Shown here: positions 39,396-56,313 of the stretch, in pieces
Numbering within the stretch: the stretch's first letter is position 1
Layout of the letters: every line of letters begins with the position of its first letter
Assembly: GCF_054482525.1 (NCBI RefSeq)
Contig: NZ_CM137006.1
Reading direction: 5' to 3' (one strand)
DNA length: 64,000 nt
Made by a program: the position numbers and the translations under genes
The notes under the pieces: model-generated
The model's input: the letters and a program-made list of their open reading frames with translations, nothing else
Databases searched by the model: none
Told to the model about the DNA's origin: nothing

Positions 39396-39429
39396 GCCCC
39401 GCCAGCTATAATCGCGGGGCTTCGTTTTT
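39396..39429 (+). terminator. Rho-independent terminator after ykgJ
   Basis: GCCCCGC / GCGGGGC stem followed by TTCGTTTTT. Confidence 0.65.
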
Positions 39430-39575
39430 CAGGGATAACAAAACCCGAAACTTCTTCCATCTGCCAGCAACAATGCCTCTTCCTCTATAGTGTTCTCCGG
39501 ATCTACAGCATCCTGAAGTAGCGCGATGTACTCACTAGCTATCTGTTTCAGAAAGTAAAAAGCAATGTTTTTAAC

Positions 39576-39612
39576 CTATAAAAATGGCGCTGTATTTGCG
39601 CCATTTTTATTA
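39576..39612. terminator. Bidirectional terminator between ykgJ and yagU
   Basis: AAAAATGGCGC-TGTATTT-GCGCCATTTTT perfect palindrome with A/T runs. Confidence 0.65.
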
Positions 39613-39621
39613 TTCAATGCA

Positions 39622-50239: not shown

Positions 50240-50791
50240 TCAGTTTGCAGATGCAGTAGGTCTGATGGTAATTTCGGTTGTATCAACGCTTTCGGGAGAT
50301 TCAATAATATGCCTTACAGCACGGGCAATATCCGCGGGTTGAAGTGCAACAGAACGGTAGGCGTCTATTGACTTCATGGTTTCCACATGGGTAATGGTTG
50401 AAGCCAGTTCACTTTCTACAACCCCAGGATTTACGCAGGTCACACGGATTTTCGAGCTTTCCTGCCGTAAGCCATCCGAAATAGCCCGTACTGCAAATTT
50501 TGACGCGCAATAGACTGCGCCTGTGGGCACAACAGAAAGGGCACCAATAGAACCAAGATTGATTATCTGACCGGAACCCTGTGCTTCCATCACCGGAAGT
50601 ACAGCGCCAATTCCCCAAAGTACACCTTTGATATTCACGTCAATAGTGAGTTCCCATTCATCTTGTTTTCCTGCTGCAAGCGGTGAAAGCGGCATAACGC
50701 CCGCATTATTGATAAGAACATCAACTCGCCCCCAGCTATCCAGCGCTGCTTGCACGAAATCTGCCATGGACTGTCGGTCTGTGACATCCAA
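50240..50791 (-). pseudogene. 5'-truncated short-chain dehydrogenase/reductase gene
   Basis: Contains NNAG, the catalytic Ser and YxxxK but lacks the N-terminal TGxxxGxG Rossmann segment (about 60 aa missing); frame abuts the integrase fragment. Confidence 0.6.
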
Positions 50792-50794
50792 CTT

Positions 50795-50962
50795 GCATTT
50801 TCAGAAATGGGAGGCTGGGAGTCTATCGAAATGGTTCGTCGATATGCTCACCTCGCGCCTAATCACCTTACCGAACACGCACGGCAAATAGACTCAGTCC
50901 TGAACCCATCGGTCCCAAATTTGTCCCAGTCAAAAAAAAAGGAAGGTACTAATTATGTGTAA
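50795..50962 (+). pseudogene. 3' fragment of a tyrosine recombinase (phage/P4-type integrase) gene
   Basis: Encodes ...[24 protein letters not shown], the integrase C-terminal motif carrying the catalytic Tyr; no upstream integrase body. Confidence 0.6.
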
Positions 50963-51174
50963 CTTATTGATTTAAATGGTGCGATAATAGGAATATAACA
51001 CACCACATATATTCTTTGATAAATATGACTATTTTCTTGTTTCATCTTTATAAATGCCCCCTTTTGTGCCCCCACCTTGTTTTTCATGCGACTCGATGAG
51101 ACTTTCATCGAGTCGTTAATCTCATCAAATTCTTCACGTATCGTGGAAACCTTCGCAGATCTCCATCCCCTCAC
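50953..51174 (-). CDS. Hypothetical small protein coupled to the toxin gene
   Basis: 73-aa ORF whose ATG overlaps the toxin stop (ATGA). Confidence 0.3.
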
Positions 51175-51539
51175 AGCCGTGATCGGCTAAGAACAATATT
51201 ACTTACCTCCCTGTAAGAACACCGGCTCATCAGCCCGCACGCTTTCCTGGCTTGAAGAATGTCTGTCGCAGTCAAATATGGTGCTTGTACCTGAGAGGTA
51301 AATCCATTGCGATCAATACGAACTAACTCATATTTCTCTACCAGAAAGTTAACGGCATTAGCCAGAGTGATACCGGCATCGATATGCTCCTTTATAACGG
51401 TTTCATCGCTAAAAGGTGTGTCGCTTAGCATTAGGCCATAGTGCTGCTCAAGCAGACGAGTAAGTAACATTTGCCAGATTGCAACGGGCGACAGACAGGG
51501 CTTCGCCGCCCGCGAAATTGTAGCAGGTAGATTTTTCAT
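51171..51539 (-). CDS. CbtA/YeeV/YkfI-family toxin (cytoskeleton-targeting type IV TA toxin)
   Basis: [36 protein letters not shown]... is collinear with CbtA; ATGA overlap with the antitoxin stop. Confidence 0.85.
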
Positions 51540-51877
51540 GTTTGCTCTCGTGAAATTTGTTTGCGCTGAGGGGGATAAATGGCGATGTATACGTAGCCGC
51601 AACTACCAAGGGTATCGGCTTCGCAGGTGAAACCGTTGTGGTACAGGGTGACACAGTGGGCATGGCGGGGATTCATTTCACCAGTGGTCAGCATCGATTC
51701 CATCTGACTGATAAAATGTGGAAATACGACATCCAACTTCAGGCTTTCGGCATCACTAAACTTACCGGTGATACTTGCCCGGTCAGCCAGATAGTGCAGC
51801 CGGTTGCCCTCCTGCACCAGACGTGCTCCCAGGCACGGCGTGATATCCCGCTGCAGGCCCCATGTGGGGTTGCTCAT
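51536..51877 (-). CDS. CbeA/YeeU/YfjZ-family antitoxin
   Basis: ...[20 protein letters not shown]...[10 protein letters not shown] matches the YeeU family. Confidence 0.85.
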
Positions 51878-51894
51878 TTATAACCTCTTTATTG

Positions 51895-52116
51895 TCAGTT
51901 CAGGGTAATACTCACCAGACAGGTATAAGGTCCGTTGCGATCCTGGCGGCGTTCGACGTATACCGCCAGCACACTGGAAATGTCAGGAACCACCTTAACG
52001 GTGTATTGACAGACACTGCCATGCCACTGGTATCTGCCAGTGCAGAATCGAACAATGCGGGAGGCCGGATGCTGACGGTAAATCGTCATCGCCAGGCGTT
52101 TACTGATAATTTTCAT
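51895..52116 (-). CDS. DUF987 protein (YeeT/YkfH family)
   Basis: MKIISKRLAMTIYRQHPASRIVRFCTGRYQWHGSVC... Confidence 0.75.
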   Translation of the reverse strand: MKIISKRLAMTIYRQHPASRIVRFCTGRYQWHGSVCQYTVKVVPDISSVLAVYVERRQDRNGPYTCLVSITLN

Positions 52117-52124
52117 GTAATACC

Positions 52125-52604
52125 TCAAAGCAGACCATGTTCAGCGAACGACAATATCTGCGTACCACCGACGATAAGGTGGTCGAGCACCCGGATCTCC
52201 ACCAGCATCAGTGCATGTAACAGTCGTTGAGTGATAGCCTTGTCGGCCTGGCTTGGAGTCACTTCTCCGGACGGGTGGTTATGGGCAAATATCACCGCCG
52301 CCGCATTAAAGTACAGCGCGCGTTTCACCACCTCGCGAGGATGAACCTCAGTGTGACTGATGGTGCCGGTAAAGAGCGTTTCGTGGGCAAGCAGCTGGTT
52401 CTGGTTATTGAGGTACAACACGACAAACACTTCGCGCTCAAGGGGGCCCATTTTCAGCCTGAGCCAGTCGCGGGCAGCCTGAGTCGAGGTGAATGCCACA
52501 CCCGGTTCTAGCAAGTGCTGGTCAAGCAGAACCAAGGCTCGCTTAATGGTACGCAGTGCTGGTAACGGCAGTTCAGGTGTAAACATAGTCAGTTGTTTCG
52601 CCAT
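52125..52604 (-). CDS. RadC-like JAB-domain protein (YeeS/YkfG/YfjY family)
   Basis: HNHPSGEVTPSQAD JAMM-like motif. Confidence 0.85.
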   Translation of the reverse strand: MAKQLTMFTPELPLPALRTIKRALVLLDQHLLEPGVAFTSTQAARDWLRLKMGPLEREVFVVLYLNNQNQLLAHETLFTGTISHTEVHPREVVKRALYFNAAAVIFAHNHPSGEVTPSQADKAITQRLLHALMLVEIRVLDHLIVGGTQILSFAEHGLL

Positions 52605-52978
52605 AGCAAATATCCTTAATTAAAGGTGGTGAGAATGACACTGGATTCGGCACGACAGGCGTGATGGTCGTATTCGAGTAGGAAGATGGTAATATGATTG
52701 CGGAATGCATGAGGAAACGAAGCCAGCAATGACCCAGTGACTCACACCCAATCACAGTGTTAAAAATAAAAAAATCCCGCAATCCAGCGAGGATTGCATT
52801 GGGATAATATCTATCTGTAATTATTTAGAAAAAATGTTTTTTTTCTGAGGTCTATTATAAATTTTTTTCGTTCAGAAACTTCTCGGATATGATCATCTGC
52901 TGAGTACCAAGAACGGACATTGTACCCAATAGTGAGTTAATCATTGGAACGTTGATCACCCCAATTGAAAATTTTCAC

Positions 52979-53006
52979 AATATCCAATATCCAATATCCA
53001 ATATAT
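52979..53006. repeat. Tandem 7-bp repeat CAATATC x about 4
   Basis: CACAATATCCAATATCCAATATCCAATATATC, about 27 bp left of the IS end. Confidence 0.7.
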
Positions 53007-53032
53007 CGGTGTAGAGGGCTTCTCTCTTAAAC

Positions 53033-54230
53033 TGATCCTACCCGCGTAATGTGGACACGCTCCTAAGCGAGATTCTGGTTTTCAAACTGTTTCGGGCTGA
53101 GGCCGCCATAATCGCTGTGACGCCGCCAGCGATTGTAATCGCACTTAATCCGCCGTCCGCATGATTTCCCGGCTGATAAAGCGTTCTCCGTGGATACACT
53201 CGACTTTTAACGAGTGTAAGAAGCTTTCCGCACAGGCATTATCATAACAGCAACCTTTTGCGCTCATGCTGCCATGCAGATTATGTCGTTTCAGCAGAGC
53301 CTGATAATCCGCTGAGCAGTACTGCCCGCCACGGTCGGTGTGAATTCGCCGCCACAGCGCCATCTGCAGTGCATCACAGGCAAGTTCTGCCGTTATTTGC
53401 GAGGACACCAACTAGCCAATAATAGCACGCGACCACCAGTCTATAACCACGGCAAAGTATAACAAGCTTTCATCGATGCGAAGGTACGTGATGTCACCAG
53501 CCCACTTCTGGTCCGAGCCACTAGATCTGAAGTCCTGCTTCAGCAGATTCTCCGGCACTGGCTGGTCGTGAGCACAGTAGATTAACGGGCTGAACAGACG
53601 TGAGGTTTTTGCCCGCAGGCCCTGACGACGCGAACTGTTGCTATCGTTTTGATGTTGTATTCCGGCGGCTCGTCTGCAAGACGAGCCGCACCATAACGCT
53701 GTTTTGCCTCAACGAATACCTTACAGACAGCTTCATTGAAGACGCACCGGAACTGTTGCCGATGGCTCAGTTGGGGACGACGCAGACACCAGGTATACCA
53801 GCAGCTGTGCGCCACGCACAGCACCCGACACATAGCTTTGATACTGAACTCAACCTGATATTTTTCGATAAAGATATACTTCATTTCAGGCGCTACGCGA
53901 AGTATGTCGCGCCCTTTTGGAGAATAGCCAACTCATTATCCCGCTCAGCCAGTTGACGTTTGAGGCAGGCAATCTCCGCTGCTTGTGCGCTCTCTCTCAG
54001 AGGATATTGTCTGGTGCAGTTGTTTGTAGAGCTGGGAATCGTAAAGGCTGAGTTCACGGGCGGTAGTGGCCACACCGAGACGTTCGGCCAACTTAAGGGC
54101 TTCTTCACGAAATTCAGGCGTGTGTTGTTTGCGTGACTTTTGTTGATTGATGCTGATTTTGTCATGTGAGCTACCTCTGATTGAGAGTTTACTCGCTTAG
54201 TCCCGTGTCCACTATTGGTGGGTAGGATCA
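53033..54230 (-). mobile_element. Degraded IS3-family insertion sequence (IS3-like) with frameshifted orfA/orfB
   Basis: Terminal inverted repeats TGATCCTACCCGCGTAATGTGGAC (left) and TGATCCTACCCACCAATAGTGGAC (right, reverse complement); minus-strand ORF fragments match IS3 InsE (…[23 protein letters not shown]) and InsF (MKYIFIEK..., ...[14 protein letters not shown]...CCYDNA...), split by frameshifts; no target-site duplication. Confidence 0.8.
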
Positions 54231-54579: not shown

Positions 54580-56313
54580 ATGTACATAGCAAAAATTAAA
54601 TTTACAAATTTCAAATCATTCAAAGAGATGTCTTTTGAGTGCAATGATAAATTCAACATAATTGTTGGTGAAAATAATATTGGTAAAAGCACATTATTTG
54701 AGGGGGTAAGTTTATGGAAATATGCTTATGACAACCTTATTCAAGAAAAAAACAAAAACAAATTCTACAAAGCTTCAACTAACTACTACATTACCTATTC
54801 TACACTCGATCAAATAAGACTTGTTGACGATATTGATATTTTTAACGACCCAAAGAATAGCTCCGCATCAATATGCATTACAATTAAAGATGAACAAAAT
54901 GAATTTGATTTAGAGATTAGATTTGAAAAGCCAGGGATTAAAAATTCATACTTACGGATATTTAATAGCAATGGTTCTGATAATGACACACAGTTTTCAA
55001 ACTTTGAACGATTCTCAAACTATATAAAAGAAAAGGATTGCACTCTAAAAGATGCCATTTACATTTACCAAACAAGACCAATATCAACTATTTTTAGAGA
55101 TGAGCCATTTTACAATAATGCGCAGATAGAGAAAAAAATAAATATTGGAAAGTCACATGATGTCTTAAGGAATAAAATATTAAAAACCGAAAATACTCAA
55201 GCCACAAGGGTTGCACAAAAATTTGAAAATCTTGAGATTCGCCTACAAAAAGTCCTTGGTGAAAACTATATCTTAAAATTTAAGAATAGAAATCGAATCG
55301 ATGATGAGTATGTTAAAATAACTGCAACAAAGGAAAACGGGAAAGAATTGGAAATATCACTTATGGGTAGTGGTTTTTTGCAAGTCTTAGAGATATTTTC
55401 AACAATTGAGTATATGGAAAAGAATTCAACCGGTATTAACCTCATTCTTATCGATGAGCCTGATTCACATATCCACTCAAATTTACAAGCAAATTTAATT
55501 GACGAACTAAAGCAACAAACAGCATGTCAAATTTTTGTCATAACACATAATGACAGACTAACATCAAAAGCTAATGAAGGTGAGCTTTTTTATCTAAATC
55601 AGATAGTTAAGGATCTTGGTTTATTGTCTCACCTTGAAATATCTGATTATTCAAAAGTTAAAGATGGTCTAGCTAATGTACTAACAGCTATAAATGATGG
55701 AGATGAAACACCCATTGTTATAACTGAAGGAAAAACGGACCAGAAAATTTTAACAACTGCTTGGGAAAAGCTAAACCCAGGAACTCCTATGCCTTTTAAA
55801 ATAATTTCATCCGGCATTCAAATTGAAGAGGAAAAAAGAACTGGGTGCGCAGAGGCAGTTAGAAGATCTTTAGAATACATTTCAACATTAACTGATAGAA
55901 CAATTATCGGTTTATTTGATAATGATCGGGAGGGAAATGAGCAGTTCAAAGGATTAAATCGTTCTATTTTTGAACCTCATGACCTGCAAAATAACTCCCG
56001 AAAACATCAGATAAAAAATATCTATGGGCTTATTCTTCCCGTTCCTGTGCATAGAGAACGTTTTGTACAAAACAATTCTTTAACGCAGCGTTACTTCGTA
56101 ATTGAACAATATTTCCAAGATGAAATATTACTACAGCATAACATGAAAGGTGAGTCAATATTAGGTACTGAGGTATTTTTTGTTAATGACTCAAGAAAGA
56201 ATGAGTTTTCAGAGTCAACCAATGACCTTCCGGTAGAATGCTTTGGGGATTTTAGTATTTTATTCGATAAAATTTCCGATTTATTGGCTAACAATAGACC
56301 AGAAAACACTTGA
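54580..56313 (+). CDS. OLD-family protein: N-terminal ABC-type ATPase fused to a C-terminal TOPRIM nuclease-like domain (P2 Old / Gabija GajA / PARIS-like); candidate anti-phage defense protein
   Basis: 577 aa; Walker A GENNIGKST (aa 30-38), Walker B LILIDEPD (aa 288-295), H-loop ITHND; TOPRIM-like ITEGKTD (E383) and FDNDREG (D447, D449); strongly AT-rich codon usage. Confidence 0.7.
   Translation: MYIAKIKFTNFKSFKEMSFECNDKFNIIVGENNIGKSTLFEGVSLWKYAYDNLIQEKNKNKFYKASTNYYITYSTLDQIRLVDDIDIFNDPKNSSASICITIKDEQNEFDLEIRFEKPGIKNSYLRIFNSNGSDNDTQFSNFERFSNYIKEKDCTLKDAIYIYQTRPISTIFRDEPFYNNAQIEKKINIGKSHDVLRNKILKTENTQATRVAQKFENLEIRLQKVLGENYILKFKNRNRIDDEYVKITATKENGKELEISLMGSGFLQVLEIFSTIEYMEKNSTGINLILIDEPDSHIHSNLQANLIDELKQQTACQIFVITHNDRLTSKANEGELFYLNQIVKDLGLLSHLEISDYSKVKDGLANVLTAINDGDETPIVITEGKTDQKILTTAWEKLNPGTPMPFKIISSGIQIEEEKRTGCAEAVRRSLEYISTLTDRTIIGLFDNDREGNEQFKGLNRSIFEPHDLQNNSRKHQIKNIYGLILPVPVHRERFVQNNSLTQRYFVIEQYFQDEILLQHNMKGESILGTEVFFVNDSRKNEFSESTNDLPVECFGDFSILFDKISDLLANNRPENT

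Follow-up and report, generated by a model that had tools for sequence, protein, structure and literature searches.

The CbtA/CbeA family of toxin-antitoxin (TA) pairs is represented in Escherichia coli by CbtA/CbeA (YeeV/YeeU) of CP4-44, which is the founding type IV pair, by YpjF/YfjZ of CP4-57 and by YkfI/YafW of CP4-6. Toxins of this family act on FtsZ at its H6/H7 loop and on MreB at its flat face, and the binding of FtsZ by CbtA, YpjF and YkfI is abolished by the F65S substitution (PMC5624674). CbeA counteracts the toxin without binding it, and a 20-nt spacer between the antitoxin and toxin genes is the published norm (PMC5371832). The CP4-57 genes yfjXY-ypjJ-yfjZF were reported to form one operon which is induced by stress, and LfgB (YfjY) was reported as a protease degrading MqsA (PMC10846083). 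Such TA pairs are located near prophage attachment sites (PMC10846083, PMC5371832). Here, a related locus was analysed in a 64,000-nt stretch of contig NZ_CM137006.1 (RefSeq assembly GCF_054482525.1), which is referred to as the window. An earlier reading of the window without database searches (the sequence-only reading) had proposed a type IV TA module with RadC-like and DUF987 companions.

The proposed module was confirmed at 51171-52604 by the list of open reading frames (ORFs), the direct reading of 50400-53400 and the Pfam matches: four intact and tightly packed genes, all on the minus strand, encode a RadC-like protein, a DUF987 protein, an antitoxin and a toxin (Table 1). With a probability of about 0.85, the locus is the att-distal end of a ~23.6-kb CP4-6/CP4-57-type thrW island that carries a functional TA block. 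According to this reading, the island was inserted at E. coli thrW by a tyrosine integrase; the four-gene block ends ~100 nt before attR. By homology, the toxin is predicted to bind FtsZ and MreB, blocking division and elongation, and the antitoxin would neutralise it through the same cytoskeletal targets and not by direct binding. An ATGA overlap, created by the loss of the antitoxin stop codon, probably allows the toxin to be translated by termination-reinitiation coupling in addition to initiation at its own ribosome-binding site. The antirestriction gene that usually precedes radC appears to be reduced to a relic, and radC now stands behind a ~325-nt leader bordering a variable cargo slot. 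The most likely role of the block is the stabilisation of the island, possibly with a contribution to the stress response; stabilisation is the most economical role due to the distance of only ~100 nt between the module and attR.

The module is an ordinary member of a well-studied E. coli TA family, and its genes already carry the correct names in RefSeq. It carries little weight in itself, and the value of the check is mainly corrective: the ATGA overlap arose by a single-base accident in this lineage and is not a family trait, and the missing antirestriction gene is an inherited variant of the island.

The four-gene block and its K-12 counterparts

The Pfam E-values of the four proteins ranged from 6.9e-33 to 2e-57, and the scores were far above the gathering cut-offs. 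The determined scores were 192.4 bits for the toxin (cut-off 25; residues 1-111 on profile positions 1-111 of 112), 179.6 bits for the antitoxin (cut-off 27), 112.9 bits for DUF987 (cut-off 25) and 152.3 bits for the RadC-like protein (cut-off 22.1), which also matched TIGR00608 with 152.6 bits (cut-off 133.85). In the chromosome of E. coli SCU-102 (NZ_CP051753.1), the corresponding genes are named RadC family protein, DUF987 family protein, YeeU-family antitoxin and CbtA-family toxin by the NCBI Prokaryotic Genome Annotation Pipeline (PGAP). The window was 99.985% identical with this chromosome, with three mismatches (39537, 53808 and 56011) and one 1-nt deletion (position 50983; C, plus strand) over 27.3 kb. 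The window is therefore likely to represent another assembly or isolate of this lineage. Exact copies of the toxin, antitoxin, DUF987 and RadC proteins were found on ~300 contigs each. All four genes are under purifying selection, as the ratios of non-synonymous to synonymous rates (dN/dS; Nei-Gojobori) against more distant relatives were 0.06-0.35, with 0.06-0.11 for radC, 0.10-0.21 for the toxin and 0.15-0.35 for the antitoxin. None of the four proteins had a match in PADLOC, and nothing useful was obtained from PHROGs. With Rfam, no known RNA was detected in or beside the module, either in the whole window at the gathering threshold or in 50700-53100 at E<=1, where the match obtained, osmY, was at chance level.

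The toxin is full length and was aligned end to end with CbtA, YpjF and YkfI, with 57 invariant columns and no frameshift, premature stop or other inactivating lesion in the alignment. Inactivating mutations in the toxin ORF had been named in the sequence-only reading as the finding that would speak against it; the 122 residues are intact and F65 is kept, being invariant in the alignment, with C15 as in YpjF and YkfI. The identities of the toxin were 97% with the orthologue of ET490 (NZ_CP100947.1), 76% with YpjF, 72% with YkfI and 56% with CbtA. The antitoxin, whose gene directly precedes that of the toxin on the same strand, was 96%, 90%, 85% and 64% identical with its counterparts in ET490, YfjZ, YafW and CbeA, respectively, and matched the solved YfjZ and YeeU structures 2ea9, 2jn7, 2h28 and 2inw. 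By these family matches and K-12 identities, and thus by homology only, the pair is a putative type IV system. The four genes may be transcribed as one operon, as reported for CP4-57.

The RadC-like protein was 72-77% identical with YeeS, LfgB and YkfG, and its residues E86, H108, H110, S112 and D121 were invariant in the alignment with these proteins; the five residues are presumably the JAB/MPN+ metal-binding motif (E, HxH, S, D). The radC start chosen by PGAP is 52586 (153 aa), which is later than the start at 52604. The latter aligns with the starts of the relatives, and a conserved AAGGA is located 8 nt before its ATG. DUF987 was 82% identical with YkfH, 68% with the CP4-57 homologue (YpjJ) and 58% with YeeT. 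It is a facultative member of the block, being missing from the blocks of E. coli NCTC9064, Yersinia, Serratia grimesii and Buttiauxella and a pseudogene in 10R. RadC, in contrast, was linked to the TA pair in every lineage and genus compared, even where the antirestriction gene and DUF987 have been lost.

The comparison with CP4-44 and CP4-57, as suggested in the sequence-only reading, was extended to CP4-6. The same families are present in all of these loci. In CP4-57, the genes also stand in the same order (RadC-like, DUF987, antitoxin, toxin), att-distal in a tRNA-type island, and both F65 and C15 are shared. However, CP4-57 has an intact lfgA (yfjX) 8 nt before lfgB, a 20-nt spacer, a 105-aa antitoxin and ssrA as the attachment site, whereas an lfgA-type relic, a 113-aa antitoxin with the ATGA overlap and the thrW site are found in the window. 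CP4-6 (YkfG, YkfH, YafX and YkfI/YafW; RadC 73% identical) has the same family, order and attachment tRNA (thrW), and the island of the window is located in the same chromosomal interval, from thrW to the pao/yagP side. It differs in keeping yafX (antirestriction) and ykfF (DUF905) and in its cargo; moreover, the toxin end of CP4-6 in K-12 is beside the intact thrW and that of the window beside the pseudo-thrW repeat. CP4-44 shares the Pfam families, F65 and a similar length of the C-terminal tail of the toxin, but it differs by its 88-nt spacer, the N-terminal extension of CbeA, R15 of CbtA instead of C15 and the presence of yeeW, which has no counterpart in the window. ET490 has the same toxin-attR-integrase junction and differs from the window by its DUF905 and antirestriction genes, which are kept, by the normal stop of the antitoxin and by a prophage integrase of full length.

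Table 1. Positions of the TA block, the attachment site and the neighbouring features in the window.
Feature	Position	Strand	Remarks
RadC-like JAB/MPN protein	52125..52604	-	159 aa; PF04002, E 6.9e-45
DUF987 protein (YeeT/YkfH/YpjJ family)	51895..52116	-	73 aa; PF06174, E 6.9e-33
CbeA/YeeU-family antitoxin	51536..51877	-	113 aa; PF06154, E 2e-53
Stop-loss codon AAA (Lys106)	51560..51562	-	TAA stop in relatives; single T-to-A change
ATGA overlap, toxin start/antitoxin stop	51536..51539	-	read directly
CbtA-family toxin	51171..51539	-	122 aa; PF06755, E 2e-57
Inverted repeat just 3' of the toxin	51090..51114	-	perfect 10-bp arms, 5-nt loop; read directly
Tandem GGGGGCA-N5-GGGGGCA	51055..51073	-	probable integrase arm-type binding site, attR arm
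attR core: pseudo-thrW 3' end and native thrW flank	50961..50992	-	equivalent to K-12 ptwF
73-codon ORF, judged spurious	50953..51174	-	GTG start at 51174; overlaps the toxin stop as GTGA
Integrase of a second element, 3' fragment	50804..50962	+	PGAP pseudogene; convergent with the toxin
ArdB/KlcA-type antirestriction 3'-end relic (probable)	~52619..52693	-	in frame; ~20 codons deleted
Non-coding leader upstream of radC	52605..52925	-	~325 nt; includes the antirestriction relic; conserved
IS3-family transposase pseudogene	53036..54165	-	PGAP: frameshifted, internal stop; seen as ORF fragments; terminal inverted repeat at ~53036
ABC-type ATPase gene	54580..56313	+	577 aa; AAA_21, E 6.4e-17, and AAA_15, E 1.6e-15, at residues 1-340

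Antitoxin stop loss and the attachment site

The ATGA overlap of the antitoxin and toxin genes noted in the sequence-only reading is present, but it is not the usual arrangement of the family. In the DNA alignment, ET490 and the K-12 yafW-ykfI and yfjZ-ypjF pairs read ...CAGCG(C/T)TAAC..., and the window reads ...CAGCGCAAAC... at the same place. Due to the change of TAA to AAA, eight more codons (KQISREQT) are read across the former 20-nt spacer, as far as a TGA which shares bases with the toxin ATG; the overlap is thus a consequence of the lost stop. In the three compared loci, the 20-nt spacer contains GAGAG before the toxin ATG, and this ribosome-binding sequence of the toxin is still present in the window. 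The usual gene end of the YfjZ/YafW subgroup (YPTQR, stop, 20-nt spacer), which is a typical and not a defining feature, is therefore absent; the other members of the antitoxin cluster whose sequences were read end with YPTQR or YPTHR.

The exact 113-aa antitoxin was found on 305 contigs, which indicates a real allele of the lineage and not an error. The eight-residue tail is probably harmless: the nuclear magnetic resonance structure of YfjZ, 2jn7, was solved with a 113-residue construct that has eight extra C-terminal residues, so that a short tail is plausibly tolerated. The stop loss could retune the toxin-to-antitoxin ratio in this lineage.

The attR core of the window reads TCCTATTATCG-CACCATTTAAATCAATAAGTTAC on the minus strand, and the K-12 thrW with its flank reads TCCTATTATCGGCACCATTAAAATCAAATTGTTAC. 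A 20-nt direct repeat is common to this core and the attL of SCU-102, in which an intact thrW is followed by a tyrosine integrase ~23.6 kb from attR, outside the window. The island thus has both the flanking tRNA-derived direct repeat and the tyrosine integrase at an intact tRNA that characterise the CP4 type. The homology with the islands of SMS-3-5 and 10R stops just past the pseudo-thrW repeat. No tRNA gene was detected in the window by ARAGORN, the att repeat being a 3' fragment only. The 1-nt deletion at 50983 falls exactly within the pseudo-thrW core.

Between the toxin and the core, a tandem GGGGGCA pair occurs once in the window, compared with 0 occurrences expected from shuffled sequences. 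The same pair is found at the attL of SCU-102, between thrW and the island integrase, and also 3' of the toxin in six other loci (L002, L007, L008 and L012-L014). The block of ~68 nt around the pair has one substitution among four islands which are otherwise 84-92% identical. From this distribution, the pair is a probable arm-type site of the integrase. The inverted repeat GACTCGATGA-AAGTC-TCATCGAGTC, located between the toxin stop and the arm repeats, is kept in ET490 and SMS-3-5; the 10R copy has a loop shortened by 1 nt and a G-U-compatible change in one arm. As no T-run comes after the repeat, it is not a canonical terminator.

The sequence-only reading had also described a translationally coupled 73-aa ORF downstream of the toxin. 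The view that this is a genuine third gene of the module, like yeeW after cbtA, has some points in its favour, as the frame is open for 73 codons, of which the initial ~60 are kept in ET490 and SMS-3-5, its GTG overlaps the toxin stop in the manner of the 4-nt overlap between K-12 yeeW and cbtA, and the product is labelled 'hypothetical protein' in a few draft assemblies. However, the ORF covers the island attR, running through the arm repeats and the pseudo-tRNA, and it is frameshifted in 10R. No match of its product was found in Pfam, NCBIfam, PHROGs or PADLOC, it is without PGAP annotation, no similarity to YeeW was found in the window by tblastn, and no Shine-Dalgarno sequence precedes the GTG. 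The members of the ORF cluster have the first ~60 residues in common, followed by unrelated tails (45-135 aa in total) that differ with the DNA flanking attR. The exact 73-aa product was found on one 146-kb draft contig only, and its length depends on the 1-nt deletion at 50983, which is absent from the RefSeq record. In the comparison with SMS-3-5, 6.5 of the 7 differences were non-synonymous. The conservation of the DNA is better explained by its function as a recombination site, and a coupled third gene is very improbable. Due to the att overlap, the frameshift, the variable tails and the lack of a family match and of a Shine-Dalgarno sequence, the ORF is not considered a gene and should not be carried forward as one.

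Beyond the core, an integrase gene is represented by its last 159 nt, which were 92% identical with the 3' end of an integrase from a yfd-type (CPS-53/KpLE1-like) prophage. In ET490, this prophage is inserted at the island attR and its integrase is of full length, which suggests that a second element had once been inserted in tandem at the repeat derived from thrW. At the deletion junction (50240-50962), an N-terminally truncated short-chain dehydrogenase/reductase (SDR) gene (50791..50240, minus strand) abuts the integrase fragment.

The region upstream of radC

As the sequence-only reading had noted, an intact antirestriction gene is lacking before radC: none was found in the window by tblastn, and only a probable 3' relic was detected. 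In ET490, SMS-3-5, 10R, K-12 and Buttiauxella the gene is intact and ends a few bases before radC, being in the usual synteny in the first four. The translation of the relic, ITIFLLEYDHHACRAE, corresponds to IAVCLIEYSHHACRTE in the proteins of ET490, K-12 and Buttiauxella. Taken alone, the relic is weak, with a tblastn E-value of 0.02 window-wide and 1e-4 within the leader, and the match, at 52646-52693, is limited to residues 108-123 of the antirestriction protein of ET490 (152 aa). The assignment is strengthened by its location directly before the conserved ribosome-binding site of radC, as is the case with the intact gene in the relatives.

According to the sequence-only reading, the place of the antirestriction gene had been taken by an IS3 remnant and an OLD-like gene. 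The IS3-family pseudogene and the ATPase gene are indeed on that side of radC, but the loss of the antirestriction gene was not a local event caused by the IS3 remnant. A deletion by a local IS3 insertion was rejected, since the relic and the leader are common to islands in other taxa and since the radC-to-ATPase spacing is the same in five further loci (L010-L014), contigs with a radC protein cluster that takes its name from Serratia, Klebsiella and Raoultella. In L010-L013, the backbone is that of the window (GTPase, DUF932, an unnamed 236-aa gene, GYF_2/DUF4339 and two unnamed genes), followed on the opposite strand by the 577-aa ATPase gene, then by ~1975 bp and by radC with the TA pair; among these four, DUF987 is called in L010, L011 and L013 only. 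L014 has only the ATPase-radC-TA part in common with the window and different genes upstream. The leaders of L010-L014 were 98-99% identical with that of the window, and their antitoxins are called at 105-106 aa, without the eight-residue extension. The shared leader and the same ATPase at the same spacing indicate that the antirestriction loss was inherited in a horizontally spreading variant of the island.

The leader contains a terminator-like hairpin with a T-run (52798..52778). It was 80-88% identical with the leaders of E. coli NCTC9064, Yersinia and Serratia grimesii, compared with 66-71% at the third positions of radC. Conservation above the level of synonymous sites suggests that the leader has kept a regulatory role. 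Of the leader, Buttiauxella showed the hairpin element only, ~400 nt upstream of the intact antirestriction gene.

A small RNA or an attenuator in the leader, composed of TATAAT (52859..52854) and the hairpin, was considered; its -35 element is poor and its -10 element is degenerate in the relatives. With RNAalifold, the structure was not supported by covariation across five leaders (covariation term +2.92), and the z-score of the single-sequence fold was only -1.69. A scan of genome contigs with a 27-nt leader pattern returned two species only, Serratia grimesii and Buttiauxella agrestis, which are too few for a covariance model. Between the leader and the terminal inverted repeat of the IS3-family element, at 52930-53035, a short tandem repeat of the type (TCCAATA)x3 was observed (tccaatatccaatatccaatat).

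Possible defence cargo and the function of the block

The 577-aa ATPase gene is divergent from radC and flanked by insertion sequences. Its ATPase half was verified by the AAA_21 and AAA_15 matches, which is the part of the OLD-like label that holds; otherwise, the label rests on the PGAP name, 'ATP-dependent nuclease', and on the Toprim-like motifs ITEGKTD and FDNDREG, which were seen by eye. No Pfam, NCBIfam or PHROG match was found for residues 341-577 (237 aa). In PADLOC, the protein gave weak matches only, to NsnB (the best, 1.8e-22), GajA (2.6e-20) and AriAB, and in BLASTP with a genuine GajA only the ATPase motifs were aligned. Beyond its ATPase half, the protein could not be assigned to OLD, GajA or AriAB. 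Exact copies or homologues of at least 90% identity were found on ~270 contigs.

Islands of E. coli which bear integrases and are inserted at tRNA hotspots carry defence systems (PMC10121019). In the relatives, the slot of the ATPase gene is occupied by Pycsar in Yersinia (PycC, E 1e-109; PycTM, E 7e-32), by PD-T7-5 (E 5e-135) together with a YiiX-like hydrolase in NCTC9064 and by Gabija in 10R (GajA, E 0; GajB, E 7e-267), where the antirestriction gene is retained. Due to these occupants, the 577-aa ATPase is a reasonable candidate for phage defence. We tentatively suggest that the interval between the backbone and radC may be a dedicated slot for defence cargo in tRNA-integrating islands of several genera, bounded at one end by the leader and the RadC-CbeA-CbtA block, although this proposal is rather doubtful at present. 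If it were true, the ATPase would be an uncharacterised single-gene anti-phage system, and the TA block could be an addiction or back-up element keeping the cargo in place. The RadC-TA block can be used as a landmark for locating such cargo.

At the thrW-proximal end of the island in SCU-102 (869675-877538), which lies past the right end of the window, the integrase is followed by SLATT-domain, nucleoid-associated and GTP pyrophosphokinase-like proteins and further by DprA and a RecQ-family helicase, which may be a second cluster of defence-type cargo.

Several observations weigh against a functional TA block. In the scan of 50900-53100, no minus-strand sigma-70 consensus promoter was found upstream of radC, and the terminator-like hairpin is located within the leader. 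Among 5426 complete E. coli genomes, a match of at least 99% to the 111-nt junction with the stop loss was found only in SCU-102. The dN/dS of the toxin against ET490 was 1.3, resulting from five differences, which are too few changes to be informative. The first three of these observations could be explained if the module were a decaying, non-functional remnant, silenced or inactivated by the lost stop codon and by the disappearance of the upstream promoter and antirestriction gene, and hitch-hiking in a cryptic island. The surroundings, with the IS3 pseudogene, a transposase fragment, the truncated integrase and the truncated SDR gene, show such decay, and the DUF987 gene is a pseudogene or absent in relatives. 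However, none of the four ORFs is damaged or shortened, their dN/dS against distant relatives is low, and identical proteins are present on ~300 contigs. In addition, the conserved radC leader suggests a kept regulatory function, and a functional toxin with a dead antitoxin would be counter-selected. A decaying remnant is accordingly improbable.

The invariable linkage of RadC and the TA pair, despite the losses of the antirestriction gene and DUF987, speaks for another explanation, in which the four genes work mainly as one unit in the service of the mobile element or of host stress physiology, and not as a mere addiction pair. The RadC-like protease could, for instance, cleave a regulator or the antitoxin, and the TA pair would then act as the output, or as a back-up of the adjacent defence cargo. 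The intact JAB catalytic residues, the 77% identity with LfgB, whose proteolytic activity and stress-induced operon are mentioned above, and the defence systems in the bordering slot of the relatives are in line with such a unit. However, there is no link between the RadC activity and the TA pair in the present data, YkfI/YafW and YpjF/YfjZ of K-12 were each shown to work as a TA pair on their own (PMC5371832), and the synteny could simply reflect the shared inheritance of the backbone. A common stress or defence unit is therefore considered unlikely, although less so than decay, and a functional TA block at the end of a thrW island, stabilising this island, is the preferred reading.

An IS009 RNA (RF02111) unrelated to the module was found by Rfam at 39416-39616 on the minus strand, with 186 bits, above the gathering score.

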